The position numbers and the translations under genes are program-made. The notes under the pieces were generated by a model, which saw only the letters and a list, made by a program, of their open reading frames with translations, was not told the origin of the DNA and made no database searches. Source: Macrostomum lignano (lineage: Eukaryota). From it: a stretch of DNA of 64,000 nucleotides. Positions 45,634-64,000 of the stretch are shown here, one piece after another (the first letter of the stretch is position 1; each line of letters opens with the position of its first letter). Location of the stretch: assembly GCA_002269645.1 (NCBI GenBank), contig NIVC01000029.1, forward strand, positions 1,329,834-1,393,833, in the 5' to 3' direction.

Positions 45634-47320
45634 TTGAACTTATCGAATTATCGTCTTTCTGACTGCGAAACCGAAATTTTAGGAATGGGGAAGAACTTTG
45701 TGCCAGCCCCAATTGTTATGGGGTCCAGCGTCCTTTCTGACTCCATCAAGGTTTTCAAGCAGAGAATAGTTCTTAACTCCCTGCTTCAGCGTCGCACGTG
45801 TGCTTTCACCCCGCGCATCCCTTATACTGGCCGAGCTTCGATCCCCAACATCAACTTGGACAAGTGGCGCTCTCACAGAGACCTTTTTGAAAGCCTTGAC
45901 AGGATTAGAATTCCAAGAATCATACACAACAAGCCAAACCTTCAGGAGCAGCAGAGAATGGCACTGAAGACTCTTCGAGACAATAGCAGTATCGTCATTA
46001 AACCTGCCGACAAGGGCAGCAATATGGTCGTTTTGAATCGAACAGATTACATACTGGAAGCTAACAGGCAGCTCTCCAACAGGACCTTCTACCAACCCCT
46101 TGACACTGCAATGAGCGCCCAGACCAGTGCCATTATCAAAGCCATTTTTCAAGATCTTAAAGAAGAAAAGATAATTACTAATCATCAATACTCGCAACTG
46201 ATTCCGCCAACTATTCCAAGAGATCGAATTTTTTACCTTTTGCCAAAAATCCATAAGGATCCCGAAGAATGGCCTACTCCTGGAGTGCCTCCTGGGAGAC
46301 CCATTGTCTCGGACTGCAGCTCGGAAAGCTACATGAGCGCCAAATTTATCGATCTCTTCCTACAGCCGATCGCTAAGGAACAAGACTCCTTCATCCGAGA
46401 CACGGACCACTTTCAAGCGGCTATTAATGATTTGATTTTTGAAAAAGACGAAAATGTCTTTCTGGTTACAATGGATGTTGAATCCCTGTACACCAATATT
46501 CCCACTGATAAGGGGATGGACGCCATTAGAGATGCCTTTCAAACATTTCCCCAAACCTCAAGGCCAGATAACCATCTTCTTGCGCTCCTGGACATTAACT
46601 TGAACAAAAATGATTTTGTTTTCAACGACACGCGCTACCTTCAAATCAAAGGCACAAGCATGGGAAAGGCCTTTGCGCCATCCTACGCCAACATATTTAT
46701 GTCTGCCTGGGAATCCAAAGCTTTAGAAACTGCTCCGTTTACCCCTCGTTTCTTCAAGCGCTACATTGACGACATTTTTATGGTCTTCGTCGGCACTGAA
46801 GACGAACTAAAGGAGATGCACAAGCATCTGAATGAGTTCGATTGCAACATCCGACTCACGATGCAATACAGCAAAGAGAAGGTTCACTTCCTGGACTGCT
46901 GTGTCAGTCTGACTGACGAAGGCAACAACAAGAGACTTTCGTGCTCAATCTACTTCAAACCCACCGATTCACGCCAGCTTTTAAATCCGGGGTCTTTTCA
47001 CCCAAAGCACACTTTCAAAGGTATACTGAAATCTCAGTTCCTCCGTTACGCTCGCCGTTGCACATTTAAAGAAGACTTCGATGAGGCCAGCAGCAGCTTA
47101 ACAAGCATCCTGAAGAAACAAGGATATTCTGTCCGCTTAATCAGGGATTCTAAAAAATCTGCCCTCATCCAGCTGGGCCTCTACATTGATGGTCGGTGGG
47201 AGTTCGGCTTCCAGGATTGTGGCAATCTAAGCTGCCGTCCTTGCAGAGAGCACGGGCATTTTGGCCAAGTTTGTTTAGGGTCCAGCGCTACAAAAATGAT
47301 TTACAAAATTTGTCAAAAAG
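45634..47320 (+). pseudogene. PLE ORF2 copy D, truncated before the GIY-YIG domain by the LTR element
   Basis: Matches the other copies up to ...TGTCAAAAAG (47320), then switches to the LTR start TGTAGAG. Confidence 0.9.
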
Positions 47321-48395
47321 TGTAGAGTGTTCTACCTCCCGTAAGAAGACATAAAAGTGTTAATGTACTACTCACACATTTTATTTAGTAGTAAATTGAA
47401 GAGCATGAATAAAGGTATGCTTTGAACTATAAGTATATTCGGACTAACCAATAGGAAGAGAGAGACCTCGAGCATGCTAATTTTAGAAATCACCCAATCA
47501 CGTGCGACCAACAACTGTCAATTCAAACCCCACCTTCAAGTCATCATTTTGTTTGCACTCGGGTTGCACCCGGATGAACCAATCAAAGTCTACCAGCTAC
47601 GGTAACCAATCATGCGCTTTTACAGTAGACTAGTTGCGCAACTTTCTACCCTGTCATGCTTGACAGCCACCGAATCGTGACCCTTTGACATTTGCGAAGA
47701 CAGTGATGTACGACCTCGAGAGAGGTCTGAACGCCTATAAATACAAGTGGTCCGGAACGGACCCGGAGCCAGAAAATCTCCAAGGAGAGAAGCTCCGAAG
47801 AGGAAGCTCTAGTGAAGCCTTCCTGAAGAAACTCGCGTCGTGGACGAGTTCTTGCGGTAAGCCTTACTCATTTGCGCCCGTTGGTTGAGACGTCTCGCTC
47901 AAGTCTATTGAGACTTGAGTTTATTTGAGTCTGTTGAGACTCTTGAGTCTGTTTAGACTCCACTGGTTGCAGTCTCCAGAAGGACTGCCCCTGATAGATC
48001 TTAGAAGACTATCAGTGGTTTCCGGAGCCATACCTAGAGTGCATAGAGGCACTACTAGAAGGAGTAGGCTTATATTAAACCGCAGTTTGGCGCAGGGATC
48101 CCCATTGTTAATTTGGAAGCTTCCGATTGGTCCGAACTACAGATACCGGCCGGCAAGAAGTCAAGAGGACAAAGGAGATAACGGACCAGATCAACTGTTA
48201 CCAGGCGCCTAAACTTCCTGAAGGAAAGGAAAGTTACTGATCGCGATACTACGGACGAGGATTATTACGAGAGCTCTCATTTAAGGACTCAAAGGTAATT
48301 GAATACCTTCATTTGATTACTGGGTTGCCTAGCTACAGAGCTAGAAGTGATTGTTCCTTGATTACAGTTGAGGACTGGTAATAAGGAACACATCA
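47321..48395 (+). repeat. 5' LTR
   Basis: TGTAGAGTG...GGAACACATCA; about 99% identical to 56953-58026 by eye. Contains several CCAAT boxes (~47448-47612) and TATAAATA (47736-47743). Confidence 0.95.
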
Positions 48396-48396
48396 A

Positions 48397-48408
48397 TTGG
48401 TGATCTCG
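48397..48408 (+). promoter_or_regulatory. Putative primer-binding site (TTGGTGATCTCG)
   Basis: TGG directly after the 5' LTR is complementary to tRNA 3' CCA. It resembles the tRNA-Trp PBS TGGTGACCCCG with two mismatches; tRNA identity uncertain. Confidence 0.55.
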
Positions 48409-49091
48409 CCCTCTCGGCACTACTCAAACTTTTGAGCAATAGCCTGGCCAAGCTATTGTAAAGTGACGAAAGAGCGACTTCATTAATTTTGCGCGCACGT
48501 GTTAGAGGTAACACTTTTCGACACTTTTCGATTTTTGTACGATTTGAAACTCGAGTAAAAGCTTAGGTATACAGGCTTGAGTACCTGTCAATTTTGAGTA
48601 ACGTTTGAGCACGCGTGTTAAATTTTTGTTTTTAACGAGCTCGAGCAAGAGTAAACCTTAAACAAAACCGAAAACAACGTCCGGTACACTGAAAACAAAC
48701 CGAAAAATAATCAATACACACTAAAACAAAACCGAAATTAAAAACACTTGACGAAAGCTAAAACAAACCGAAATTTGATAAAACGTGACAAGGCACGTCA
48801 CGAAGACAAGAAAGGCCTTTGAAAAAAGCAATAAGCAGCTGCACTTCAAGCACTTTAAAGATACACTTTGCGGGACGCCGCATAAGTGCGAAAATCAGCC
48901 AGCGAATAAGAGGTCAGAAAAAGCAGCCAAAAGCCGAATTCCGCTCAAGGTCAGACATAACAAATTGAGGTGTCAAAAGCGCCGCGAGACAATCAGTTAC
49001 AACCGAAGTTTATTTCGAAAGAAACACCACACTGGAAGATCCATTACAAATCGACCCAGACCTAGAGCTACCGTTCTATCCCATCAACAAC

Positions 49092-51392
49092 ATGGCGCGG
49101 CGCAATCCAACGGTGCACAGAGATATCAAAGAGACAGTTGGCACCTTTTCTATGGAAAAAGACTTTAACACCTTTGTTGATCATTTTGACCTGGTATGTA
49201 GGGAATACAACCTACAAAATCCAGAAAAAGCGCAACTGTTGCCACCACTCCTCCAAGGCACTGCACGAGAGATTTATGGTAAACTAGATGCGGCAACACA
49301 GCAAAACTACCCAGCATTAATCATTCAACTGCGCGCGCATTTCAACCGCTGTGGCACAAACAGATCAGTGCTACTGCACAAGTTGCATAACAGAAGGATG
49401 CAGCCAACCGAATCCTTCCTGACCTTTGTGGACGACATCCGTCAGATAATTAAGGCACTGCATCAGCCAACACTGCCAGCTGCAGACCAACCACCTCTGG
49501 GTGCGGCAGAATTAGCCGCTAGAGAGCGACAGCGATTGATGGATCGCGAACAAAATCTGATTCTGCACGTAATAAACAATGCACAGCCGTCACTCCGAGA
49601 TAGACTTCTACGCGAAAACATTGAAACCGAGGAAGACCTTTTACGGTGCGGAATGCAGTGGGAAGCAAGCGCTCCACTAATGACAACCGGCAACACAGAA
49701 GTGCAGAAACTGACACAGCAACTAAACAAACTGATGCAACATCAAACAGCCGTTATCGCCGAACAAAAAAGACGAAATGAACGAGCCCAAGCCAGATGCT
49801 ATTACTGTGGACGAGAAGGACACTACCAAATTAATTGTCCTCATCGGTCAACAAGAAATGACATGCAGCGACAGCCATTCAACAGAAGGAAGCCGCAAAA
49901 ACCATGGCAACAACATCAAAATTGGCAGCAGCAAAACACGAAACGCTTCGGAAACAATGGCTACAGACCGCGAAACACCAGATACATGCCCAAGCAACCA
50001 ACGCAAGCGATGCAACGATATGCAAACGCCATCACGTACACACCGGAAAGCGAACAGCAAGAGCAGCAAGTCTTCACGATAGACGACTTAGAAATGGACT
50101 TCACTATCAATGAAATCGACTGGCTCGATGTGGAGAGCAGCGAAAAGACAAAAAACATCAGCATGGTCGAAATGAAAGAAACTAACATTGACAGCGAAGA
50201 AGAAAAGACAGAAGTGAGCACAGAAAAAACATTGCCAAGCGACATCAGTGAAAGAAAAGAAGAAACAAACAAAGGCAACGACAAAGAACTGGCAACGAAG
50301 GATGACAAAGAAAGAAGCAACGACGGAAATACAGAGATGGAAGAAGAACAGCAAGAAGAAAGCAGCGATCACGATTATGAGATGCAGAATGACGCTGATG
50401 ACAACCAAGCCGCCGACAAAGAACATGAAGACGGAAGGCACAAAGGAATGGAAGAAAGAAATCTAAGCTCCGACAGCGATCAATGCTACGAGATCCGATA
50501 TAAACGAAATGGTGAAGCCTACATTCAAACGGTCGACTACAAGGCCGAAGTGAGGTACCGCAGACAATGGAGTGACACAACTACAACATCGGAAGAAAGC
50601 AAGGAAGAAAATGATGAAGACGACAAGCAGCGGAACGAATCGGATGCCTTGCGCTCGGAAACGCCAATGGAACAAGAGGAAGAATACGATGCGGACGTAG
50701 AAGATAACGAATGGCAGCCGCAGCCAATGCCAGCAAAGACAACGGCAACGTTCAGAAAATGGCGACTCTGGATATTCTGGATCATCATAATACTACTGAC
50801 GGCAGTAGTCACCAAAGCAACAGCAATGGAAAAACCAATGATATGTCCAACGGATGCGCATATCCAACCGATGATCTACAAGATACCAACCGACATCAAA
50901 TGCAGCTACTTCAAGACAAACCAGACGAAGCCAAAAAAGATCACAATCGATCTCTACAAAGCCAACATCAAGAAGCATCGACAACTTGGAATCGTGTGCT
51001 TCAGAGACAAGCACCTAGTCGAAAAAATATGGCGAGGACAATGGAACAGAATCCGATTCCGACAGCATGAGCTACATGTGTCGCACGCTGACTGCCTACG
51101 ATGGAACCAGACATTGTTCTCCAAAGATGGTGTACTAGAACCTGATGAAAAGGTCGGCAACGCACAACTCTTCCGAACAAAGAATGTGGCAAACGGTCGA
51201 TATGTCCACTATAATGAAAGATGGCCTGACTACACGGCACGCAACAGCTACCTAATCAGGAATGTTCCGTTCTACTACAATCCGTACGAGAAAATGGAAT
51301 CACTGCAACTGCAACTAAGTGAATGCCGATACAGCGAAGGATGGTGCCAACGCCGATATTGCGAAATGCAGAACTCTACAGCCTACCGCTGA
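49092..51392 (+). CDS. Gag (capsid-like region, CCHC knuckle) + acidic linker + internal signal/TM + N-terminal part of the envelope ectodomain
   Basis: CYYCGREGHYQINC knuckle; Asp/Glu-rich spacer; WRLWIFWIIIILLTAVVTKATA hydrophobic segment (50760-50825); then a Cys/Trp-rich region with N-glycosylation sequons. Continues into the next ORF via a -1 shift near 51345. Confidence 0.88.
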   Translation: MARRNPTVHRDIKETVGTFSMEKDFNTFVDHFDLVCREYNLQNPEKAQLLPPLLQGTAREIYGKLDAATQQNYPALIIQLRAHFNRCGTNRSVLLHKLHNRRMQPTESFLTFVDDIRQIIKALHQPTLPAADQPPLGAAELAARERQRLMDREQNLILHVINNAQPSLRDRLLRENIETEEDLLRCGMQWEASAPLMTTGNTEVQKLTQQLNKLMQHQTAVIAEQKRRNERAQARCYYCGREGHYQINCPHRSTRNDMQRQPFNRRKPQKPWQQHQNWQQQNTKRFGNNGYRPRNTRYMPKQPTQAMQRYANAITYTPESEQQEQQVFTIDDLEMDFTINEIDWLDVESSEKTKNISMVEMKETNIDSEEEKTEVSTEKTLPSDISERKEETNKGNDKELATKDDKERSNDGNTEMEEEQQEESSDHDYEMQNDADDNQAADKEHEDGRHKGMEERNLSSDSDQCYEIRYKRNGEAYIQTVDYKAEVRYRRQWSDTTTTSEESKEENDEDDKQRNESDALRSETPMEQEEEYDADVEDNEWQPQPMPAKTTATFRKWRLWIFWIIIILLTAVVTKATAMEKPMICPTDAHIQPMIYKIPTDIKCSYFKTNQTKPKKITIDLYKANIKKHRQLGIVCFRDKHLVEKIWRGQWNRIRFRQHELHVSHADCLRWNQTLFSKDGVLEPDEKVGNAQLFRTKNVANGRYVHYNERWPDYTARNSYLIRNVPFYYNPYEKMESLQLQLSECRYSEGWCQRRYCEMQNSTAYR

Positions 51393-54300
51393 GTCCAACG
51401 TATCATCCAGACTATCGATGGCAGATAGTGCACAGAGCCGATCCACACTACGAAGAGCCATCAAAGTCACGACAATATTTCTTCGCTTGGAAGGTTGAGA
51501 CGGAAATCGACTGTCAACTACAAAAGTATCACACAGTGGAAGGAGGCCTACTGTCAAACACGTTTTTGGCAAAGTCAGGAGACTTGGCACTGACGTTTCA
51601 AAAGAAACCAGTCGAGCAAAAACTGAAATGCAAGGATACAGACAAGACACTATTCATCTCGGAACAAGAGATACCAGTCTACGTAAAAGAAGACGACAAA
51701 CAAACCTTTCTGGCGATCATCAACGGAACGTATCAACAGCAGGAACAACAGAACAGACGACGACGAGACATCGAACGTCCCAAACTGGTGTCAAACCGAC
51801 TACTGTCAGCAAAGATAACGGCTTTGGATCACAATCTACACAACCAGTTAAACCACTTGCATCGAACACTGGTCCAGCTAACTTGCAAAATGCACGCAAT
51901 CAACTTAAATTATGCCAGACAAAACTACTATGTCAACCCTACGATGACTTTTCGTAAAATCACCGGAATGACGAACGTTTTGGCAGTTCCAATATACGAG
52001 CATCTGTTGATATACAAGTGCACGCCGATACAGCACTTTAACATCTTGCCGTCGAACACGTCAACAACCTGCTACGACAAGCCAAGGATTGAAGCGTTCT
52101 ACGAAGGAAAACGAATTCAGGGATTCTTGGACACGGTACACAACATCATAGTTGGCACCGCAATACCGAGACCCTGCACCACGGCAGCAAACTACTATCA
52201 ACTGGACAATGCACTACACGTCATCAAAACAACTGGAACGACAGCAAACATCACAGAACCGGAAGTAATCGTCGACGAAAACTACGACATGGAGGATTTG
52301 AAAATCCGATTCAACAGAACGAAGTATACGCCATTCGCCGATATCCAACTTGACGAGATAACACCAGGATGGACGATCAACGACTTCTTGCAAGCGTTCA
52401 TCACCCAACGCAAGATGATTCACCAGCTGTTCACAAGAAAGGACAAAGGAACCGGGACAGGAAGATTTCCCGTCCTTGTTTCAATGGACAGCGCCATCAA
52501 ATCATTTTGGACAAACAGCTTCTGGGAGCTGCTCAATGGAAGAGGCAGTCTCTATCAAGGATTCATCTTCTACGGTGCTTGCATTGTGTGGATTGTCACG
52601 GCAATCTTCATCATTTCGTCAATCGTACGGTGCTTCAGTCAAACTTGTCCAAAAGCTAAGAAGACAGTTAATGCCATAATGCAAAGAACGATAACGGAAG
52701 GCGACAACAGTTTAGAACTAACAGAAACTGCACATCGTGAAGTTCAAGGGCAACCGACACTAGCAACGCGGCTATATCCATCGATTCCGACAACACCAAC
52801 GGCACCAAGAATACAACCACCCAACTATCAAGCAGAACAGCAAGACCCAAAATGGCCAGAGAACTACGTATGTACTCTACACGCCGAAATTGGCAAAGCC
52901 ATGGCTCAAGTGGTAATCAACAATCTACCATGTCGAGCGCTACTCGACTCCGGCAGCTCCATCACAGTTATATCAAAACAACTGTGCAACAAGCTACGAC
53001 TTGCTCTACGGCCAGCAACAATCGCAGTTGCAGGAGCAGGAGGACATTCGCTAAACATTCTGGGAAAAGCCGACATTGATTTAAGAATCGCTAATAAACA
53101 CTTGACAGTTCCAACGTACGTCATCGACAGACTCCCAAACCAGGACGTTATTGTTGGCATCGACACGTTCAAGCAGCTTCGACTACCATTGACCTTCGAC
53201 TTCAATAAGCAAACGTTCAAGATCGACTCGGTAGAACAACCATTGATCAACCAGATCCGAGTACTACCAAAAGTAACATTGCAACAAGATGTCATCATCC
53301 AACCGGAGAGCGCCTGCTGGATAAAGGCAAAGGCAACTAACGCAACGGAGGAAGCAATGATATTCGACCCAAACAGAAGAGTCACGGCTAAACACCAAAT
53401 TATGATGCCTACGGCACTAGTACTGGTTGCAAAAGATAAACAGCTGCCAGTACAAATATTCAACCCGAACACAGAAACGGTTCATCTACGACAAGGAATG
53501 TGCATCGGTCATCTCAACACCCAAGCATCGGTTATGCTGATTGAGCAAGCGACTCCACGACTAACAGAGGAAGAATTTCAAAAGAAGATCAATTTGGATG
53601 ACAGCCCGATTACGGAACAGCAAAAGAGGAAAGTTCGACAGCTGTTGTGGAAGTACAACGACGCTTTCTGCCACCATGACTACGACATCGGACGAGCCAA
53701 GGACATCAAACAGGAAATCAAACTTCTGCCGCACACGGAACCAATTCAGTGCAAACCGTACCCGATCGCCAAGCATCTGCAACAGCACTTCGATGAGATT
53801 ATCGACAAAATGCTGAAACACGGCATCATCAGCAAAGCCATTTCAGCATACTCATCACCATGTCTCTTGGTACAAAAGAAGGAGACTAACGAAAGACGAC
53901 TCGTATGTGACTTCAGACTACTGAACAAGTACATACCGACGGATCAGCAAAGCCTACCGAAGATCTCCGAACTACTAGCAAAGCTCAACACGGCAAAATT
54001 GTTCACAGTGTTCGACCTACGTCATGGATTTTGGCAAATTGAAATCGAGAAAGAGTCACGACAGTACACGGCTTTCAAAACCTACAATGGACAAGTATAC
54101 GAGTACAATCGATCGCCGATGGGACTCAGCAACAGCCCAGCAACGATGAGCCGACTAACAGCATACATGCTTGCAGGATGCACGAACCTGTTGCACTATG
54201 TTGACGACATCTTGGCCTACGGAGAAGACTTCGAACGACTCTATGAAGCGACGGAGAAGGCCCTCGCGCTTATACAACGTCAAGGTCTGAAGCTACAACC

Positions 54301-55501
54301 AACTAAATGCAAATTCTTCCGAGACAACGTGCGTTACCTGGGACATCAGGTGACAGCCAAAGGAATTTCACCGGACCCAGACAACGTGGATAAAGTGAAA
54401 AAGTTTCCTACGCCAACTAGCAAAACGAAGGTCCAATCATTTCTTGGACTTGCGCAATACTTCCGAAAGTTCTTACCCAACTTCGCGAAGACAGCAAAGC
54501 CGCTGTACGACCTGCTCAAGTTCGACAAATGGAAGCAGGAGAATTGGACACAAAAGCAACAAGAAAGTTTTGACGAAATCAAACGACAGCTGACATCAGA
54601 CGCACTGCTACAGCATCCGGACTTCGACAAACCCTTCATCATCGAGACAGACGCCTCAGGAACGGGACTCGGAGCAGTCCTACTACAGGAAACTGAAGAC
54701 AAAAAGGAACGACCTATAGCCTACGTCAGTCGAGCACTTAAACCGAATGAGACAAAATGGTCAGCTACGGAACGAGAACTACTAGGAGTTCTGTTCGCCC
54801 TACGACAGTTTCACTACTACATCTATGGATCTCCATTACAGACGATAGTACGCACAGATCACGCACCGCTGACCTACGTCGTAACTACAAAAGGACAAAC
54901 AAACAACCGACTCATCAGGATGACACTCAAGATCCAGGACTACAACTACAAGCTCGTCTACAAACCAGGAATTACTAACAAGGCCGCGGACGCCCTGTCA
55001 AGAGCCTACGAAGTCAACGCCATTCATCCAATCCCTAACATCAAGGAATTGGTGGATGAGACTGAACACGACAACTTCTACATAGCAGTTAAAAACAACG
55101 ACAAGGACATCAAGCTCAGCCCCGTGGAACGAAAATTCCTGCGCAAGCAGCGACAACATTTAACAATCAACAAGTCACGACTCTACTGGATGAGTGACAA
55201 CAAACCTAAAATCTACATGCCATATTCGTTTAGGCAGGCAATTCTCAACGAGCTGCACGACAACCCACTCGCTGGACACCTGTCGGCAGCCAAAACCATT
55301 GCAAGAGTGGAGCAATACTACTTTTGGCCAAGCATGCATGGCGACATCAAGCAGTATTGCAACAACTGCCACTCATGCGCAGCATCAAAGACAGGACGAC
55401 GACAAAAACCACAGCTACAATCGATACCAAGTCAACAACTATGGACTGTCTCAGCATCGACATCACCGGACCGCTGCCACCGAGCTGTCTCCATGGCATA
55501 G
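51323..55501 (+). CDS. Envelope C-terminal part (gB-like) + TM + late-domain tail + protease + RT + RNase H + integrase zinc finger
   Basis: RRRR furin-like site (51755-51766); gB-like core; TM at 52559-52627; LLDSGS protease (~52940); YVDD (54197-54208); ETDASG / ELLGVLFAL / TDHAPL RNase H; H-x6-H...C-x2-C-x2-C integrase zinc domain. Confidence 0.92.
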   Translation: MPIQRRMVPTPILRNAELYSLPLSPTYHPDYRWQIVHRADPHYEEPSKSRQYFFAWKVETEIDCQLQKYHTVEGGLLSNTFLAKSGDLALTFQKKPVEQKLKCKDTDKTLFISEQEIPVYVKEDDKQTFLAIINGTYQQQEQQNRRRRDIERPKLVSNRLLSAKITALDHNLHNQLNHLHRTLVQLTCKMHAINLNYARQNYYVNPTMTFRKITGMTNVLAVPIYEHLLIYKCTPIQHFNILPSNTSTTCYDKPRIEAFYEGKRIQGFLDTVHNIIVGTAIPRPCTTAANYYQLDNALHVIKTTGTTANITEPEVIVDENYDMEDLKIRFNRTKYTPFADIQLDEITPGWTINDFLQAFITQRKMIHQLFTRKDKGTGTGRFPVLVSMDSAIKSFWTNSFWELLNGRGSLYQGFIFYGACIVWIVTAIFIISSIVRCFSQTCPKAKKTVNAIMQRTITEGDNSLELTETAHREVQGQPTLATRLYPSIPTTPTAPRIQPPNYQAEQQDPKWPENYVCTLHAEIGKAMAQVVINNLPCRALLDSGSSITVISKQLCNKLRLALRPATIAVAGAGGHSLNILGKADIDLRIANKHLTVPTYVIDRLPNQDVIVGIDTFKQLRLPLTFDFNKQTFKIDSVEQPLINQIRVLPKVTLQQDVIIQPESACWIKAKATNATEEAMIFDPNRRVTAKHQIMMPTALVLVAKDKQLPVQIFNPNTETVHLRQGMCIGHLNTQASVMLIEQATPRLTEEEFQKKINLDDSPITEQQKRKVRQLLWKYNDAFCHHDYDIGRAKDIKQEIKLLPHTEPIQCKPYPIAKHLQQHFDEIIDKMLKHGIISKAISAYSSPCLLVQKKETNERRLVCDFRLLNKYIPTDQQSLPKISELLAKLNTAKLFTVFDLRHGFWQIEIEKESRQYTAFKTYNGQVYEYNRSPMGLSNSPATMSRLTAYMLAGCTNLLHYVDDILAYGEDFERLYEATEKALALIQRQGLKLQPTKCKFFRDNVRYLGHQVTAKGISPDPDNVDKVKKFPTPTSKTKVQSFLGLAQYFRKFLPNFAKTAKPLYDLLKFDKWKQENWTQKQQESFDEIKRQLTSDALLQHPDFDKPFIIETDASGTGLGAVLLQETEDKKERPIAYVSRALKPNETKWSATERELLGVLFALRQFHYYIYGSPLQTIVRTDHAPLTYVVTTKGQTNNRLIRMTLKIQDYNYKLVYKPGITNKAADALSRAYEVNAIHPIPNIKELVDETEHDNFYIAVKNNDKDIKLSPVERKFLRKQRQHLTINKSRLYWMSDNKPKIYMPYSFRQAILNELHDNPLAGHLSAAKTIARVEQYYFWPSMHGDIKQYCNNCHSCAASKTGRRQKPQLQSIPSQQLWTVSASTSPDRCHRAVSMA

Positions 55502-56409
55502 CCTACACCTACATCCTAACAGCCTTGGACATTTTCTCAAAGTTTGCTATTGCCATACCAATACCGGACATCACAGCTCAGACAGTGGCAATGGGTTTCT
55601 TCAACGACATCATCTGCAAGTACGGTACGCCAAAGAACCTCACATCGGACAATGGATCGCAGTTTACGTCTCAACTCTTTCAGCAAGTGGTGAAGATCCT
55701 CAACATCACGCAGATCTACACATCGACCTACAATCCGAAGGCGAACATGGTTGAAAGGTTTCACCGCAACCTACACGAGATGATTACACACTTCGCGCAT
55801 CAACAACCGGACGACTGGATCATCTATCTGCAAGCAGTAACAATGGCCTACAACAGCGCTATTCATCGATCAACGGACAATACGCCATTCTTTCTAATGT
55901 TTGGGCGAGACTTCCAGCCGCCAAACCTATTGGCACAGCAACTACTACCATCGCAATATGTGGAAGTCCCGACGTCCATTCAAAAGTTCGTCACGCAACT
56001 ACACCTCGCATGGAAAGTAGCCAAGCACAACATCGACAATCAGGTGGCTCTAACCACCGGCACCGACACGAGATCGACAACTCTGACAGCCGGCGACATC
56101 GTCTACCTGCACTATCCGCCGCAACAGACGCACAAACACGCACAGAAGTACAAAGGACCATATCGAGTGGTCCAACTAACGTCACCGACAACGGCACGCC
56201 TGGCCAATGTGCAAGATCCTCATCAGCACCAATTCTACGTGCACATTCATCGACTAAAGAAGATCAACACTGACACGACAACATTTTTACCGTCACTAGG
56301 CAACGCTGATCGCACGCGTTCGGCGAACCGCCACATCGCAACAAAACACGAGGAGACACAAACATCAACCGAGAACCAGCACCATGGCTACAATCTGCGA
56401 CCTCGTTAA
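55440..56409 (+). CDS. Integrase catalytic core + GPY/F module (reached by a -1 shift near 55443)
   Basis: LSIDITGPLP, SDNGSQF, MVERFHRNL (DDE) and YKGPYRV. Confidence 0.9.
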
Positions 56410-56520
56410 GTTGCGAAAACAACCCGTGTAGAGACCGGGTCAGAATAGCTCTACAGCTTCGCAAGCTTGTCGTAAGAGGCGACTAATCTGAGCGACTTCA
56501 AACTTCAAGCGACAACGACA

Positions 56521-56733
56521 ATGGGCAACGCACTGTCCAAACAGGCGCCCCAACTACAGCAACTCTACGAATGCCCAATATGTTTAACTGATGACTTGGC
56601 TGTCAAGCCACCAATTATTTGTGAAAACAGACATCGCATATGCGGACAATGTTTAAGCGACTCACATTATATTCAGCTCTGGCAGAATTACCCGATAGGT
56701 AGAAGTAGTTTGCGGCAGTGCGCCTATTGTTAG
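56521..56733 (+). CDS. Small RING-finger-like protein with an N-myristoylation motif, inside the LTR element
   Basis: MGNALSK; CPIC...PPIICENRH.ICGQC...CAYC. In-frame readthrough of TAG 56731 adds CQYC, with a stop at 56802. Confidence 0.7.
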   Translation: MGNALSKQAPQLQQLYECPICLTDDLAVKPPIICENRHRICGQCLSDSHYIQLWQNYPIGRSSLRQCAYC

Positions 56734-56952
56734 TCTTGGCGCACATGTCAATACTGTAACCAAAAACATTTTATTTGCATGCGTATACTTACCTTTAAAT
56801 AACTTTTATAACCAACGCTCTTAACTACCCATTACTAAATACCTGTAACACTTATGACAAATGATTATTATAAAGACATGCTTGAACTTTTTATGCGTTT
56901 CAATCCTCTCTTTAAAACTCGGGACGAGTTTTTTTGTAAACATGGGAGATTT

Positions 56953-58026
56953 TGTAGAGTGTTCTACCTCCCGTAAGAAGACATAAAAGTGTTAATGTAC
57001 TACTCACACATTTTATTTAGTAGTAAATTGAAGAGCATGAATAAAGGTATGCTTTGAACTATAAGTATATTCGGACTAACCAATAGGAAGAGAGAGACCT
57101 CGAGCATGCTAATTTTAGAAATCACCCAATCACGTGCGACCAACAACTGTCAATTCAAACCCCACCTTCAAGTCATCATTTTGTTTGCACTCGGGTTGCA
57201 CCCGGATGAACCAATCAAAGTCTACCAGCTACGGTAACCAATCATGCGCTTTTACAGTAGACTAGTTGCGCAACTTTCTACCCTGTCATGCTTGACAGCC
57301 ACCGAATCGTGACCCTTTGACATTTGCGAAGACAGTGATGTACGACCTCGAGAGAGGTCTGAACGCCTATAAATACAAGTGGTCCGGAACGGACCCGGAG
57401 CCAACAATCTCCAAGGGAGAGAAGCTCCGAAGAGGAAGCTCTAGTGAAGCCTTCCTGAAGAAACTCGCGTCGTGGACGAGTTCTTGCGGTAAGCCTTACT
57501 CATTTGCGCCCGTTGGTTGAGACGTCTCGCTCAAGTCTATTGAGACTTGAGTTTATTTGAGTCTGCTGAGACTCTTGAGTCTGTTTAGACTCCACTGGTT
57601 GCAGTCTCCAGAAGGACTGCCCCTGATAGATCTTAGAAGACTATCAGTGGTTTCCGGAGCCATACCTAGAGTGCATAGAGGCACTACTAGAAGGAGTAGG
57701 CTTATATTAAACCGCAGTTTGGCGCAGGGTACCCATTGTTAATTTGGAAGCTTCTTATTGGTCCGAACTACAGATACCGGCCGGCAAGAAGTCAAGAGGA
57801 CAAAGGAGATAACGGACCAGATCAACTGTTACCAGGCGCCTAAACTTCCTGAAGGACAGGAAAGTTACTGATCGCGATACTACGGACGAGGATTATTACG
57901 AGAGCTCTCATTTAAGGACTCAAAGGTAATTGAATACCTTCATTTGATTACTGGGTTGCCTAGCTACAGAGCTAGAAGTGATTGTTCCTTGATTACAGTT
58001 GAGGACTGGTAATAAGGAACACATCA
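56953..58026 (+). repeat. 3' LTR
   Basis: Near-identical to the 5' LTR; preceded by a weak polypurine tract ATGGGAGA. Confidence 0.95.
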
Positions 58027-58473
58027 TGAGGATCTGGGAGGCTGGCCCAGCAACTGAGGATCTGAAAGGCTGGCCCAGCAACTGAGGATCTGGGAGGCTG
58101 GCCCAGCAACTGAGGATCTGCGAGGCTGGCCCAGCAACTGAGGATCTGGGAGGCTGGCCAAGCAACTGAGGATCTGAAAGGCTGGCCCAGCAACTGAGGA
58201 TCTGGGAGGCTGGCCAGCAACTGAGGATCTGCGAGGCTGGCCCAGCAACTGAGGATCTGGGAGGCTGGCCAAGCAACTGAGGATCTGGGAGGCTGGCCCA
58301 GCAACTGAGGATCTGGGAGGCTGGTGACCCAGCAACTGAGGATCAGGGAGGCTGGCCAAGAAACTGAGGATCTGGGAGGCTGGCCCAGCAAATGAGGATC
58401 TGGGAGGCTGGCTCAGCAACTGGGGTTATGGGAGGCTGGTCCAGCAATTGAAGATCTAGGAGGCTGGTCCAGC
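58027..58473. repeat. 28-bp minisatellite (TGAGGATCTGGGAGGCTGGCCCAGCAAC)n abutting the 3' LTR
   Basis: About 16 tandem units visible. Confidence 0.92.
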
Positions 58474-58774
58474 AAACCTTCTGCTCCACTAAAATAAACA
58501 ATAAATTTGTTCATGAAAGAAAGGGCAACTAGTTATTGAATATTAGCATTCTCTGCTAAGTGAATATATAATAAAACAAACATTTTTTCAATCAGTAAGT
58601 TTTTATTCTTCATCAAGTTGTTTCACCCTGTATCTGGATAGGTTCGCGGTCATCCACTCTGTCAGATGAGACAGTTAATGCGAGCTGTGATGGCTAATAG
58701 AAGCGTCAGACGAGGTAATCAGGAATAAATAAATCTGTTTGAAGTTAACACGTGACAGACATTTGTTAACAGAG

Positions 58775-61700
58775 TCACAGCAACCGAATCATAGCCAGAA
58801 TGACGGCGGTGGCGAAGGCGGTAAAATTCCAGCCTCGAAGACTGGCGGCAGAGTTGCAGTAGTCCCCGCTGTTGCAGGCTCTACAGTTGCTATAGGAGTC
58901 GAGCTTTGAGCACTCTCCACAGCCGGCGAAGAAGATCTATGATGATGGGGACAATACTAGTGTTGTTGAAGACTGTCTAACAGGTTGACATCACTGTCTA
59001 ACAGGTTGATGTCACTATCTAACAGGTTGACGTCACTGTTTAACAGGTTGACGTCACTGTCTAACAGGTTGGCGTCACTGTCTAACAGGTTGACGTCACT
59101 ATCTAACAGGTTGATGTCACTATCTAACAGGTTGACGTCACTGTCTAACAGGTTGACGTCACTGTCTAACGGGTTGACATCACTGTCTAACAGGTTGACG
59201 TCACTGTCTAACAGTTTGACATCACTGTCTAACAGGTTGACGTCACTATCTAACAGGTTGATGTCACTATCTAACAGGTTGACGTCACTATCTAACAGGT
59301 TGATGTCACTATCTAACAGGTTGACGTCACTGTCTAACAGGTTGACGTCACTGTATAACAGGTTGATGTCACTATCTAACAGGTTGACGTCACTGTCTAA
59401 CAGGTTGACGTCACTATCTAACAGGTTGATGTCACTATCTAACAGGTTGACGTCACTGTCTAACAGGTTGACGTCACTATCTAACAGGTTGATGTCACTA
59501 TCTAACAGGTTGACGTCACTGTCTAACAGGTTGATGTCACTGTCTAACAGGTTGATGTCACTGTCTAACAGGTTGACGTCACTGTCTAACAGGTCAAAGA
59601 TGCTGTCTAACCGTTAAAGAGATTTTTATACTTTAATTCTATAAAATTATAAAATTAGACATTACTTCAGCACTCCGACTTGAGTCTGAAACTCACATCG
59701 ATAGTAGCATAGGTAAAGCTGTACTCATAGCAATAGCTACTTTCACATCTCCTCCTCCTTCGGCTGCTGTGAAGATAGTCTCCATTGCTGTAGTAACAGT
59801 TCAGAACAGGCGGTCGAGTATTGCAGTAGCTGGCAGTGCACGCTTTGCAGGTGGTGTAAGAATACCCGGAGCAGGTGCCACAACCAGCAAAGTTGTCCTG
59901 TATAGGGGCAAAATTCGGTTTTGCTGCGGTAGACTTAACAAAATGAGTGCACAGTCATTTTATACTTATTTAAAATTGCTTGGGTTAGATCAAGGAGTAA
60001 TTAGAAACGTCGGATGTGAGTCAGTGGTGTCGATAAGGAGTCAGTGGTGTCCGGGAAGGAGTTAGTAGGTGTTTGGGAAGGAGTCAGTGGGTGTCGGGAA
60101 AGAGTCAGTAGGTGTTTGGGAAGGAGTCAGTGGTGTCTGGAAGGAGTCAGTGAGTGCCGATAAAGAATCAGTGGGTGTCGGGAAAGAGTCAGTGGTGTCT
60201 GGAAGGAGTCAGTGGGTGCCGGGAAAGAATCAGTGGGTGTCGGGAAAGAGTCAGTGGTGTTGGGAAAGAGTCCGTGGTGTTGGGAAAGAGTCAGTGGTGT
60301 CTGGAGGGAGTCAGTGGGTGTCGGGAAAGAGTCAGTGGTGTCTGGAGGGAGTCAGTGGGTGTCGGGAAAGAGTCAGTGGTGTCTGGAAGGAGTCAGTGGG
60401 TGCCGGAAAGAATCAGTGGGTGTCGGGAAAGAGTCAGTGGTGTTGGGAAAGAGTCCGTGGTGTCTGGAGGGAGTCAGTGGGTGTCGGGAAAGAGTCAGTG
60501 GTGTCTGGAGGGAGTCAGTGGGTGTCGGGAAAGAGTCAGTGGTGTCTGGAGGGAGTCAGTGGGTGTTGGAAAGAGTCAGTGGTGTCTGGAGGGAGTCAGT
60601 GGGTGTCGGGAAAGAGTCAGTGGTGTCTGGAGGGAGTCAGTGGGTGTCGGGAAAGAGTCAGTGGTGTCTGGAGGGAGTCAGTGGTGTTGGGAAAGAGTCA
60701 GTGGTGTCTGGAGGGAGTCAGTGGGTGTCGGGAAAGAGTCAGTGGTGTCTGGAGGGAGTCAGTGGGTGTCGGGAAAGAGTCAGTGGTGTCTGGAGGGAGT
60801 CAGTGGGTGTTGGGAAAGAGTCAGTGGTGTCTGGAGGGAGTCAGTGGGTGTCGGGAAAGAGTCAGTGGTGTCTGGAGGGAGTCAGTGGGTGTCGGGAAAG
60901 AGTCAGTGGTGTCTGGAGGGAGTCAGTGGGTGTCGGGAAAGAGTCAGTGGTGTTGGGAAAGAGTCAGTGGTGTCTGGAGGGAGTCAGTGGGTGTCGGGAA
61001 AGAGTCAGTGGGTGTTGGGAAAGAGTCAGTGGTGTCTGGAAGGAGTCAGTGGGTGTCGGGAAAGAATCAGTGGGTGTCGGTAAAGAGTCAGTGGTGTTGG
61101 GAAAGAGTCAGTGGTGTCTGGAGGGAGTCAGTGGGTGTCGGGAAAGAGTCAGTGGGTGTTGGGAAAGAGTCAGTGGTGTTGGGAAAGAGTCAGTGGGTGT
61201 CGGGAAAGAGTCAGTGGGTGTCGGGAAGGAGTCAGTGGGTGTCGGGAAGGAATCAGTGGGTGTCAAGAAGAAGTCAGTGGGTGTCGGGAAGGAGTCACTG
61301 GTTTCAGGAAGGAGTCAGTGGGTGTCGGGAAGGAATCAGTGGGTGTCAAGAAGGAGTCAGTGGGTGTCGGGAAGGAGTCACTGGTTTCAGGAAGGAATCA
61401 GTGGGTGTCGGGAAGGAATCAGTGGGTGTCAGGAAAGAGTCAGGCTAAAACGAGCGTGTGACGCACTTCTCCGTAGTCATATGTGTAGCAGCTGCTGTCA
61501 AAGGCACAGAGGGTCGTAGTTCCGTTGCTGGTATAGCTAGTCGATGAGGACCTCGAGTAGCAGGTGATCGACGCAGCAGCGTTCGCTGTGAAAATTAAAT
61601 GATGGGCTGCGTGATCAATCTGTCTCTATGGAAACTGTCCCTAACTCTTCCGTCTAACAGGTGTCTCCTCTGTGTCTAACAGGTGTCTCCTCTGTGTCTA

Positions 61701-63858
61701 ACAGGTGTCTCCTCTGTGTCTAACAGGTGACTCCTCTGTGTCTAACAGGTGACTCCTCTGTGTCTAACAGGTGTCTCCTCTATGTCTAACAGGTGTCTCC
61801 TCTGTGTCTAACAGGTGACTCACTGTGTCTAACAGGTGTCTCCTCTGTGTCTAACAGGTGTCTCCTCTGTGTCTAACAGGTGACTCCTCTGTGTCTAACA
61901 GGTGACTCCTCTGTGTCTAACAGGTGTCTCCTCTGTGTCTAACAGGTGACTCCTCTGTGTCTAACAGGTGACTCCTCTGTGTCTAACAGGTAACTCCTCT
62001 GTGTCTAACAGGTGTCTCCTCTGTGTCTAACAGGTGTCTCCTCTATGTCTAACAGGTGTCTCCTCTGTGTCTAACAGGTGACTCACTGTGTCTAACAGGT
62101 GTCTCCTCTGTGTCTAACAGGTGTCTCCTCTGTGTCTAACAGGTGACTCCTCTGTGTCTAACAGGTGACTCCTCTGTGTCTAACAGGTGACTCCTCTGTG
62201 TCTAACAGGTGACTCCTCTGTGTCTAACAGGTAACTCCTCTGTGTCTAACAGGTGACTCCTCTGTGTCTAACAGGTGTCTCCTCTATATCTAACAGGTGT
62301 TTCCTCTGTGTCTAACAGGTGACTCACTGTGTCTAACAGGTGTCTCCTCTGTGTCTAACAGGTGTCTCCTCTGTGTCTAACAGGTGACTCCTCTGTGTCT
62401 AACAGGTGTCTCCTCTGTGTCTAACAGGTGTCTCCTCTGTGTCTAACAGGTGACTCCTCTGTGTCTAACAGGTGACTCCTCTGTGTCTAACAGGTGTCTC
62501 CTCTGTGTCTAACAGGTGACTCCTCTGTGTCTAACAGGTGACTCCTCTGTGTCTAACAGGTGACTCCTCTGTGTCTAACAGGTGTCTCCTCTATGTCTAA
62601 CAGGTGTCTCCTCTGTGTCTAACAGGTGACTCACTGTGTCTAACAGGTGTCTCCTCTGTGTCTAACAGGTGTCTCCTCTGTGTCTAACAGGTGACTCCTC
62701 TGTGTCTAACAGGTGACTCCTCTGTGTCTAACAGGTAACTCCTCTGTGTCTAACAGGTGTCTCCTCTGTGTCTAACAGGTGTCTCCTCTGTGTCTAACAG
62801 GTGACTCCTCTGTGTCTAACAGGTAACTCCTCTGTGTCTAACAGGTGACTCACTGTGTCTAACAGGTGTCTCCTCTGTGTCTAACAGGTGACTCCTCTGT
62901 GTCTAACAGGTGTCTCCTCTGTGTCTAACAGGTGACTCCTCTGTGTCTAACAGGTAACTCCTCTGTGTCTAACAGGTGACTCACTGTGTCTAACAGGTGT
63001 CTCCTCTGTGTCTAACAGGTGTCTCCTCTGTGTCTAACAGGTGACTCCTCTGTGTCTAACAGGTGACTCCTCTGTGTCTAACAGGTAACTCCTCTGTGTC
63101 TAACAGGTGTCTCCTCTGTGTCTAACAGGTGTCTCCTCTGTGTCTAACAGGTGACTCCTCTGTGTCTAACAGGTAACTCCTCTGTGTCTAACAGGTGACT
63201 CACTGTGTCTAACAGGTGTCTCCTCTGTGTCTAACAGGTGACTCCTCTGTGTCTAACAGGTAACTCCTCTGTGTCTAACAGGTGACTCACTGTGTCTAAC
63301 AGGTGTCTCCTCTGTGTCTAACAGGTGACTCCTCTGTGTCTAACAGGTGACTCCTCTGTGTCTAACAGGTGACTCCTCTGTGTCTAACAGGTGTCTCCTC
63401 TATGTCTAACAGGTGTCTCCTCTGTGTCTAACAGGTGACTCACTGTGTCTAACAGGTGTCTCCTCTGTGTCTAACAGGTGTCTCCTCTGTGTCTAACAGG
63501 TGACTCCTCTGTGTCTAACAGGTGACTCCTCTGTGTCTAACAGTAACTCCTCTGTGTCTAACAGGTGTCTCCTCTGTGTCTAACAGGTGTCTCCTCTGTG
63601 TCTAACAGGTGACTCACTGTGTCTAACAGGTGTCTCCTCTGTGTCTAACAGGTGACTCACTGTGTCTAACAGGTGTCTCCTCTGTGTCTAACAGGTGACT
63701 CCTCTGTGTCTAACATTTGACTCCTCTGTGTCTAAACAGGTGACTCCTCTGTGTCTAACAGGTGACTCCTCTGTATCTAACAGGTTACAGAGAATTAATA
63801 TTGGAAACTTACAGATAAAAGCAGCCAAAATGGCAACAGAGACAATCAAGGATTTCAT
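58775..63858 (-). CDS. Secreted, probably GPI-anchored Cys-rich protein with two Ly6/uPAR (three-finger)-like modules, 175 aa; complement(join(58775..58936,59697..59897,61467..61585,63813..63858))
   Basis: Four GT-AG exons with phases 1,0,0 that all match. Signal peptide MKSLIVSVAILAAFISNAAA; two 8-Cys modules each ending in C..C.....CN; C-terminal NSAA + hydrophobic tail FTAFATAVILAMIRLL. Confidence 0.85.
58975..59595. repeat. 21-bp minisatellite (GTTGACGTCACTGTCTAACAG)n containing CRE palindromes
   Basis: About 29 units in intron 3 of the Ly6-like gene. Confidence 0.95.
60010..61442. repeat. Composite 20/21-bp satellite (GAGTCAGTGGGTGTCGGGAAA / GAGTCAGTGGTGTCTGGAGG) with a 41-bp dimer
   Basis: Tandem units visible in intron 2 of the Ly6-like gene. 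Confidence 0.93.
61652..63785. repeat. 22-bp minisatellite (TCTGTGTCTAACAGGTGACTCC)n
   Basis: About 95 units in intron 1 of the Ly6-like gene. Confidence 0.96.
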
Positions 63859-64000
63859 TTTTTGCAATCCGTATTTCTTAGAAGTTTGTTGCTTGTCGTT
63901 GCTTTTTGAAAAAAAAAATTACTGAGAAATCCTGCCATTTATAACACTCGGTTGCCATGGTGAATACGAGGGGGGGGAGAGAGAGATAGAAAAGCTTCTG

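Follow-up and report, generated by a model that had tools for sequence, protein, structure and literature searches.

A cassette of tandem accessory genes encoding double-RING proteins was identified between the integrase gene and the 3' long terminal repeat (LTR) of Gag-Env-Pol Ty3/gypsy elements in the flatworm Macrostomum lignano. An open reading frame (ORF) with a RING motif in the window analyzed here (the whole stretch of 64,000 nucleotides, positions 1,329,834 to 1,393,833 of the forward strand of contig NIVC01000029.1, assembly GCA_002269645.1) is a relic, a truncated form of the cassette's first gene. In sister lineages the cassette is under purifying selection and has been exchanged between lineages, and its repeated loss shows that it is dispensable in cis. 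The intact proteins may be E3 ligases that act in trans.

The element spans 47321-58026 of the window on the forward strand and contains the genes for Gag, Env, protease (PR), reverse transcriptase (RT), RNase H (RH) and integrase (IN) in this order, with frames that are broken in the window copy. The 5' LTR (47321..48395, TG...CA) and the 3' LTR (56953..58026) are 99.2% identical (1067 of 1076 positions). The primer-binding site (PBS) at 48398..48409 is the 12-nt sequence given for Mlig_errantivirus_2 in the supplement of PMC13524379. The frame at 49092..51392 encodes Gag with a zinc knuckle (zf-CCHC, E 0.0016), an acidic linker, a signal-like hydrophobic stretch and the first part of Env, and is disrupted in this copy. 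The frame at 51323..55501, assigned by Pfam, encodes the remaining Env (RRRR site, membrane anchor), PR, RT, RH and the integrase zinc domain, and is disrupted at both ends. The integrase core and tail are encoded at 55234..56409 (rve, E 6.4e-15), and a purine-rich stretch lies at the position of the polypurine tract (approximately 56941..56952). A Ty3/gypsy PR-RT-RH-IN block, an env between gag and pol, LTRs and a PBS together characterize the GAG-ENV-POL errantiviruses, and the element has all of these. The gene order, the 12-nt PBS and the flatworm host label are shared with Mlig_errantivirus_2 and the HSV/gB-type errantiviruses of this group, as given in the accessible parts of PMC13524379; judged by gene order and PBS, the element very probably belongs to the Mlig_errantivirus_2 family or its sister, and it has probably already been catalogued in the literature. 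The gB-type (class III) assignment of Env is that of the Mlig_errantivirus_2 row in the same supplement. The Env of the window element matched Monjiviricetes_fusion at E 7e-5 and 21.4 bits, under the cut-off of 27, and was absent from a second Pfam listing.

A target-site duplication is absent around the element (47316-47320 versus 58027-58031) despite the 99% identity of the LTRs; copies may have recombined, or the assembly may have been joined there. On its 3' side the element is flanked by a 28-bp tandem repeat, and numerous unrelated minisatellite arrays with units of 8-41 nt are present at positions 1-47000 and 58000-64000 of the window. In some sister copies (L065, L066 and L072), Env, Pol and at least part of Gag form a single frame of more than 2,100 codons, so that either polyprotein cleavage or splicing must yield Env with its signal peptide and anchor. 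In a pol-less derivative (L064), Gag and Env are fused (1008 aa) and the two-ORF RING cassette is intact; approximately ten similar first ORFs were found in the genome. Dense nests of elements and cassette fragments (L101-L118) were observed on G000:C2121:1-70000, C1130:1-50000 and C87:226000-286000, with a single orientation per contig, as in uni-strand piRNA clusters.

The window ORF (56521-56733) contains 70 codons and lies 111 nt past the integrase stop (56409) and 219 nt ahead of the 3' LTR (56953). A preliminary description made from the DNA letters had correctly placed it there and had noted its ATG at 56521 in ACAATGG, the start MGNALSK, the pattern C-x2-C-x12-C-x3-H-x2-C-x2-C followed by CAYC, the TAG at 56731-56733 and CQYC beyond it, as well as a Gag that starts MARR; all of these are present. 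The six-ligand pattern is not due to chance, since none of the 3186 ORFs (60 aa or longer) that arose in 300 shuffles of the internal region contained it; taken by itself, the MG motif is weak, as 35 of these shuffled ORFs carry it. In the HMM search that had been proposed, the 70-aa ORF scored under both Pfam cut-offs (Sina_RING, 15.3 bits versus 29.3; zf-C3HC4, 14.3 versus 21). CAYC had been taken for the closing pair of the RING, but in intact relatives a C-x2-C at 57/60 closes the first RING (RING1), and CAYC (67/70) supplies the opening pair of a second one (RING2). That description had missed this second RING as well as the helical domain, the array of paralogs and the RNA leader described below.

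The relic (56521..56733, forward strand) thus retains a myristoylation-type start, six RING1 ligands and the first RING2 pair before its stop. It is followed on the same strand by an untranslated RING2 remnant that can still be aligned to intact relatives (56734..56782), and by a 129-nt AT-rich filler (56783..56911) replacing approximately 1.3 kb of the sister copies, namely the rest of the first ORF and the whole second ORF. Homology to sister copies breaks off at 56782 and restarts at 56912, and the filler matched the window subfamily alone among all fetched loci. A DNA search of the genome identified 22 copies at 95-100% identity, including the window copy, and sister copies at 81-85%. The TAG (codon 71) had been suspected to be a private mutation; it is shared by all 22 copies, of which 20 terminate there in frame and two are frameshifted earlier. 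Read-through and sequencing error were rejected, with the TAG in every copy, homology ending at 56782 and the remaining gene missing. The eighth zinc ligand is missing in 22 of 22 copies, the seventh also in the window copy and one other, and the sixth in 16 of 22; the window copy lacks both Cys of the closing pair and so does not hold the eight ligands of a RING-HC (C3HC4) domain. Variants among the 22 copies comprise 10 replacement and 4 silent changes in the relic versus 25 and 56 in the integrase (p 0.006), where recombinant copies inflate the silent count of this control. Comparison of the relic with intact first ORFs gave dN/dS of 0.17-0.22, which is a record of past selection. An open Gag-Env-Pol frame of approximately 2,500 codons stands next to the truncated cassette in two of the 20 copies examined over the internal region; the frame breaks in the others differ from copy to copy and may reflect decay or assembly error. 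Cassette truncation also took place independently in another subfamily, which has about two dozen copies. The window copy is dead, and its value is as evidence of repeated cassette loss.

The intact cassette of sister lineages consists of two or three tandem ORFs of 200-222 aa between integrase and 3' LTR. Each of the 21 aligned ORFs encodes RING1, RING2 six residues on, a W-P motif and a helical domain, and paralogs are 20-40% identical between groups. A protein search of the genome gave at least 151 matches, some of which may be haplotype duplicates, and 17 of them are stop-free over residues 1-220. Among 20 stretches sampled across the match range, 10 have integrase directly upstream, two are Gag/Env derivatives and the remainder are solitary, truncated or nested pieces. 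In several lineages that share just ~70% identity in pol DNA, the cassette lies directly 3' of integrase. It is also mosaic: the RH-IN region of the window is 98.7% identical to that of one sister, and the first ORF of the same sister is just 76% identical. The preliminary description had proposed a captured E3-like accessory gene, to be doubted if the frame were disrupted in other copies or if dN/dS were near 1. A probably E3-like RING gene under purifying selection does exist in the family, with dN/dS of 0.07-0.31 (22 of 26 ORF pairs, RING and helical halves alike; four pairs are saturated), but the window copy is not its working form and the stop is found in its whole subfamily.

RING E3 ligases use a linchpin Arg, and many of them have a large hydrophobic residue at the central-helix position of the RING. 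Over the 21 aligned cassette ORFs, 14 of the 16 ligand positions are invariant and the other two are conserved in 20 ORFs; both ligand sets are complete, with RING-HC spacing, in 19 ORFs, and the remaining two each lack one ligand. RING1 contains a conserved C-P-x-C loop (loop Pro) and, in 21 of 21 ORFs, an Arg right after its last Cys, which is never found after RING2. The central-helix position of RING1 is small or acidic (Ala, Ser, Gly, Glu, Asp or Gln). RING2 is homologous to RING1 (hhalign, 94.5%), scoring 10.6-23.7 bits in all 21 ORFs versus a maximum of 9.7 in 420 shuffles. Profile matches to TRIM5, RING1B, TRIM21 and SIAH1 were obtained at E 7e-6 to 7e-5, and the majority of cassette ORFs are under Pfam cut-offs. 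Structure models were confident (pLDDT 87.8 and 92.0), and the modelled RING1 has the RING fold, superposing on E3 RINGs at 2.0-2.9 A over ~50 residues with a low Z of 3.4-4.5. The RING2 fold match is weaker, the top Foldseek rows being nearly all RINGs at E > 0.4; no Foldseek match at E <= 0.001 and no Z >= 5 was found. The C-terminal domain is predicted to be all-helical at pLDDT over 90. It gave no usable Atlas match, and its best Z of 4.3-4.9 (ATP-synthase delta/OSCP, ABC transporters) is within background; such a lack of fold matches for a predicted domain does not show that the fold is new. The cassette proteins share C3HC4 ligands, the RING fold and an Arg at the linchpin position with RING-HC E3s (SIAH1, TRIM5/21, RING1B) and with RING proteins of large DNA viruses, but differ from these cellular and viral proteins in having two RINGs six residues apart and an all-helical domain, the similarity being limited to ~50 residues.

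Word-based protein searches found no relatives, and a viral-contig scan with one first ORF as query gave no match. An exhaustive protein search identified five relatives outside the search of the genome itself. One, labelled Macrostomum lignano in UniRef, is a gene model in which second ORFs are fused, and the other four are Logan proteins of 30-38% identity, of which P0004 aligned over 195 columns (probability 99.95). In a tree with moderate support and long branches, the first ORFs are joined by P0004 and P0008, the later ORFs by P0005 and P0006. The spacing of the RING had been likened to that of Siah, a protein with a C-terminal beta-sandwich substrate-binding domain. Capture of Siah is not supported: the host Siah (24 bits) and a host cluster of RING + B-box genes (21-30 bits) score alike and over one RING only, and the C-terminal domain of the cassette proteins is predicted to be all-helical where Siah has its beta-sandwich. 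With Sina_RING (cut-off 29.3), several later-position paralogs and likewise the host RING + B-box genes score 30-33 bits, compared with 62-63 for true Siah. The host cluster, which has B-box-like domains and the same C-x3-H spacing (G000:C210, C1491, C2920; L175-L178), may be a TRIM-like family that has expanded. The closest Atlas clusters consist of RING proteins from large DNA viruses, at recognition scores of 0.91 and below, which is weak. A donor was not found among the host RING genes, to which similarity is limited to one RING.

A structured leader of 65 nt (56423..56487, forward strand) separates pol from the first ORF. It consists of an H-type pseudoknot, in which a hairpin loop pairs with a stretch past an A-rich linker, followed by two hairpins. 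The leader is 78-88% identical to that of distant lineages, compared with ~70% for pol DNA, and its hairpin loop stays complementary to the downstream stretch in three sequence variants. A 20-nt core has 99 exact matches in the genome (control, 0), 97 of them within 200 nt upstream of a RING ORF. Tandem arrays of ~75 nt that contain the leader were also observed (L129 and L164, among the leader loci L121-L173). The core was detected at 53 metagenome loci, and six of 12 downstream frames scanned are non-LTR endonuclease and/or RT frames with the core directly 5'. The A-rich linker is kept in 26 of 43 distinct metagenome upstream sequences. Nine of the 43 pass a strict pseudoknot rule (mean 1.0 and maximum 3 in 30 shuffles); most fail it, and several exact-core matches look like chance in coding DNA. 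An Rfam search gave chance-level matches only, and folding without pseudoknots was no better than shuffles (z -0.77). Comparison of the stems with the nested double pseudoknot of HDV-like ribozymes showed a simple H-type pseudoknot and hairpins. RTE-type elements contain conserved 5' regions whose role is left unexplained in the accessible text of PMC5786205, and HDV-like ribozymes with possible IRES activity have been described at the 5' ends of RTE-type LINEs (PMC6765202, in part). The leader resembles these regions in its place directly 5' of long endonuclease/RT frames at the six metagenome loci, but differs from them in its location within an LTR element, where it separates pol from the accessory ORFs, and in belonging to no Rfam family. 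It could be a ribozyme, an IRES or a nuclease block.

The later ORFs of the cassette begin differently. After two mis-sorted first ORFs had been reassigned, an AG within 2 nt of the ATG was counted in 13 of 18 distinct later ORFs versus none of 14 first ORFs (p 3e-5); two of the 13 were scored at a second Met, and their upstream Met is also behind CAG. Spacers in two-ORF cassettes are ~70 nt. In M. lignano, approximately 30% of genes are trans-spliced and operons with spacers near 100 bp are present, according to the available text of PMC8629364. Given this AG placement and the host's trans-splicing and operons, both cis-splicing and spliced-leader splicing would fit the later ORFs. The whole stretch is covered by contigs of four sequencing runs whose RNA origin is only a guess; beyond 56782, the contigs of three runs go on in sequence of the sister type. 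In three of the four runs, contigs also show a GT..AG joint within the LTR (window 47855-48142), with short sides of 18-29 nt, which may mark a leader intron. Of 15 of the 21 joints from these contigs, none leads into the RING ORF. These contigs are not counted as evidence of expression.

DNA viruses deploy RING proteins against host defences. The reading we prefer, at a probability of roughly 55%, is that the cassette encodes viral-style RING E3 ligases that would act in trans against host factors, and that it has been lost repeatedly by subfamilies relying on intact relatives. RING1 would engage E2~ubiquitin, RING2 and the helical domain would form a built-in partner and substrate adaptor, and host restriction or silencing factors would be marked for removal. 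The first ORF would be expressed via a pseudoknot leader taken from the 5' end of a non-LTR element, by internal initiation or RNA processing, and the later ORFs via cis- or spliced-leader splicing onto the acceptor before their ATG. In the lineage of the window, the first paralog would have acquired a myristoylation signal that would keep the protein at membranes. Because products acting in trans would complement them, cassette-less subfamilies such as that of the window could still spread. Ligase activity, target and complementation are what we infer here from the anatomy, selection and loss observed in the copies. The atypical central-helix position of RING1, the weak fold matches and the fact that nothing points to a specific host target speak against the preferred reading.

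The same RING1 features (Arg, ligands, loop Pro) would also suit E3 ligases serving the element's own cycle, either through ubiquitination of Gag or Env for ESCRT-dependent budding or by removal of Env or its receptor from membranes. The cassette accompanies env-carrying elements and persists in the pol-less Gag-Env derivative, and a lipid-anchor motif suits a membrane site. This explanation is nevertheless unlikely: two subfamilies amplified after cassette truncation, some copies retain an open Gag-Env-Pol frame, and an array of two to three paralogs at 20-40% identity would fit several changing host targets better than a single target of the element's own. Also unlikely is a role as non-catalytic RING decoys or adaptors that bind and block E2s, host TRIM-like RING partners or translation factors. 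The invariant Arg and conserved C-P-x-C loop of RING1 in 21 ORFs are traits retained by an active ligase, although the central-helix position of RING1, the lack of a linchpin in RING2 and a host RING + B-box cluster with the same C-x3-H spacing, which could be mimicked, would be compatible with a decoy.

Arenavirus Z is a single-RING protein of ~100 aa with C-terminal late domains, and the preliminary description had considered that the window protein might, like Z, substitute as a matrix protein for an unmyristoylated Gag. A myristoylated, matrix-like budding adaptor, convergent on Z and compensating for the anchor-less Gag that starts MARR, would share with Z a Gly2 myristoylation motif ahead of a RING, as a sequence motif of one cassette lineage. 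Five subfamilies with silent sites near saturation retain residues G2, N3, A4, S6 and K/R7 while neighbouring residues drift, so that the myristoylation-type start looks selected in the lineage of the window. Z itself (PDB 7ela) is among the weak profile matches (E 0.31), but ranks 21 of 40 amid many unrelated RINGs. Four of nine aligned first ORFs, forming a single clade (100/100), have Gly2, and all 12 later ORFs lack it; it is thus missing from most paralogs. A lineage whose first ORF lacks the motif also has a Gag starting MARR, and late domains (PPxY, PT/SAP, YPxL) are absent from all nine first ORFs. Unlike Z, the cassette first ORF is 222 aa, twice the size, and contains two RINGs. With the motif confined to one lineage and no late domain in first ORFs, a general matrix substitute is highly improbable, and the MGxxxS start therefore appears, from its distribution, to be a lineage-specific localisation tag. 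Least probable of all is that the 70-aa product of the window subfamily still functions, for example as a dominant-negative stub anchored in the membrane. In 20 of 22 copies the start codon, leader and stop are shared in frame, and codons 1-30 contain three silent and no replacement changes compared with one silent and 10 replacement changes in codons 31-70 (post hoc p 0.011), but this split was picked after seeing the data and covers 14 variants in total. Moreover, two copies are frameshifted inside the ORF, 16 of 22 lack a further ligand and all lack the eighth.

A bolder extension of the preferred reading is possible but tentative. Here a lineage of invertebrate endogenous retroviruses would have evolved an expandable arsenal of RING-RING ubiquitin ligases, expressed as a mini-operon with a LINE-captured leader and host-style, possibly spliced-leader, acceptors, on which cassette-less elements would free-ride. 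Such an arsenal would parallel lentiviral Vif/Vpu in function, but with the ligase encoded by the element itself.

Extra sense ORFs 3' of pol are a known kind of gene in LTR retrotransposons, exemplified by the ORF3s of rotifer elements and the aORFs of plant elements (PMC5408684 and PMC7264820, respectively, here and below in their accessible text). These are thought to be expressed from spliced messages. The RING cassette resembles them in its position between integrase and 3' LTR and in its lineage-wise gain and loss. It differs in being a tandem array of paralogs on an element that already carries env; the rotifer and plant products are env-like, GDSL esterase, DEDDy exonuclease, coiled-coil or unknown, and the terms "RING" and "ubiquitin" had no matches there. 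Unlike the present account, the available main text of PMC13524379 has no words starting with "RING", "accessory" or "myristoyl", nor does its supplementary file 2 contain "RING", and the cassette is not mentioned in the accessible text of PMC12801592. In the open-text literature searched, no description of such a RING cassette in an LTR element was found, and the cassette is apparently undescribed.

Accessory genes have received little study in env-carrying Ty3/gypsy elements and, to our knowledge, few retrotransposon-encoded counter-defence proteins are known in animals. A selected and duplicated E3-like cassette in a flatworm in which transgenesis is possible makes the question of counter-defence testable. 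The helical domain may be a candidate new adaptor module, and the LINE-derived leader offers a handle on the role of conserved RTE-type 5' RNA. Substrates of the cassette proteins would reveal which host factors restrict these elements.
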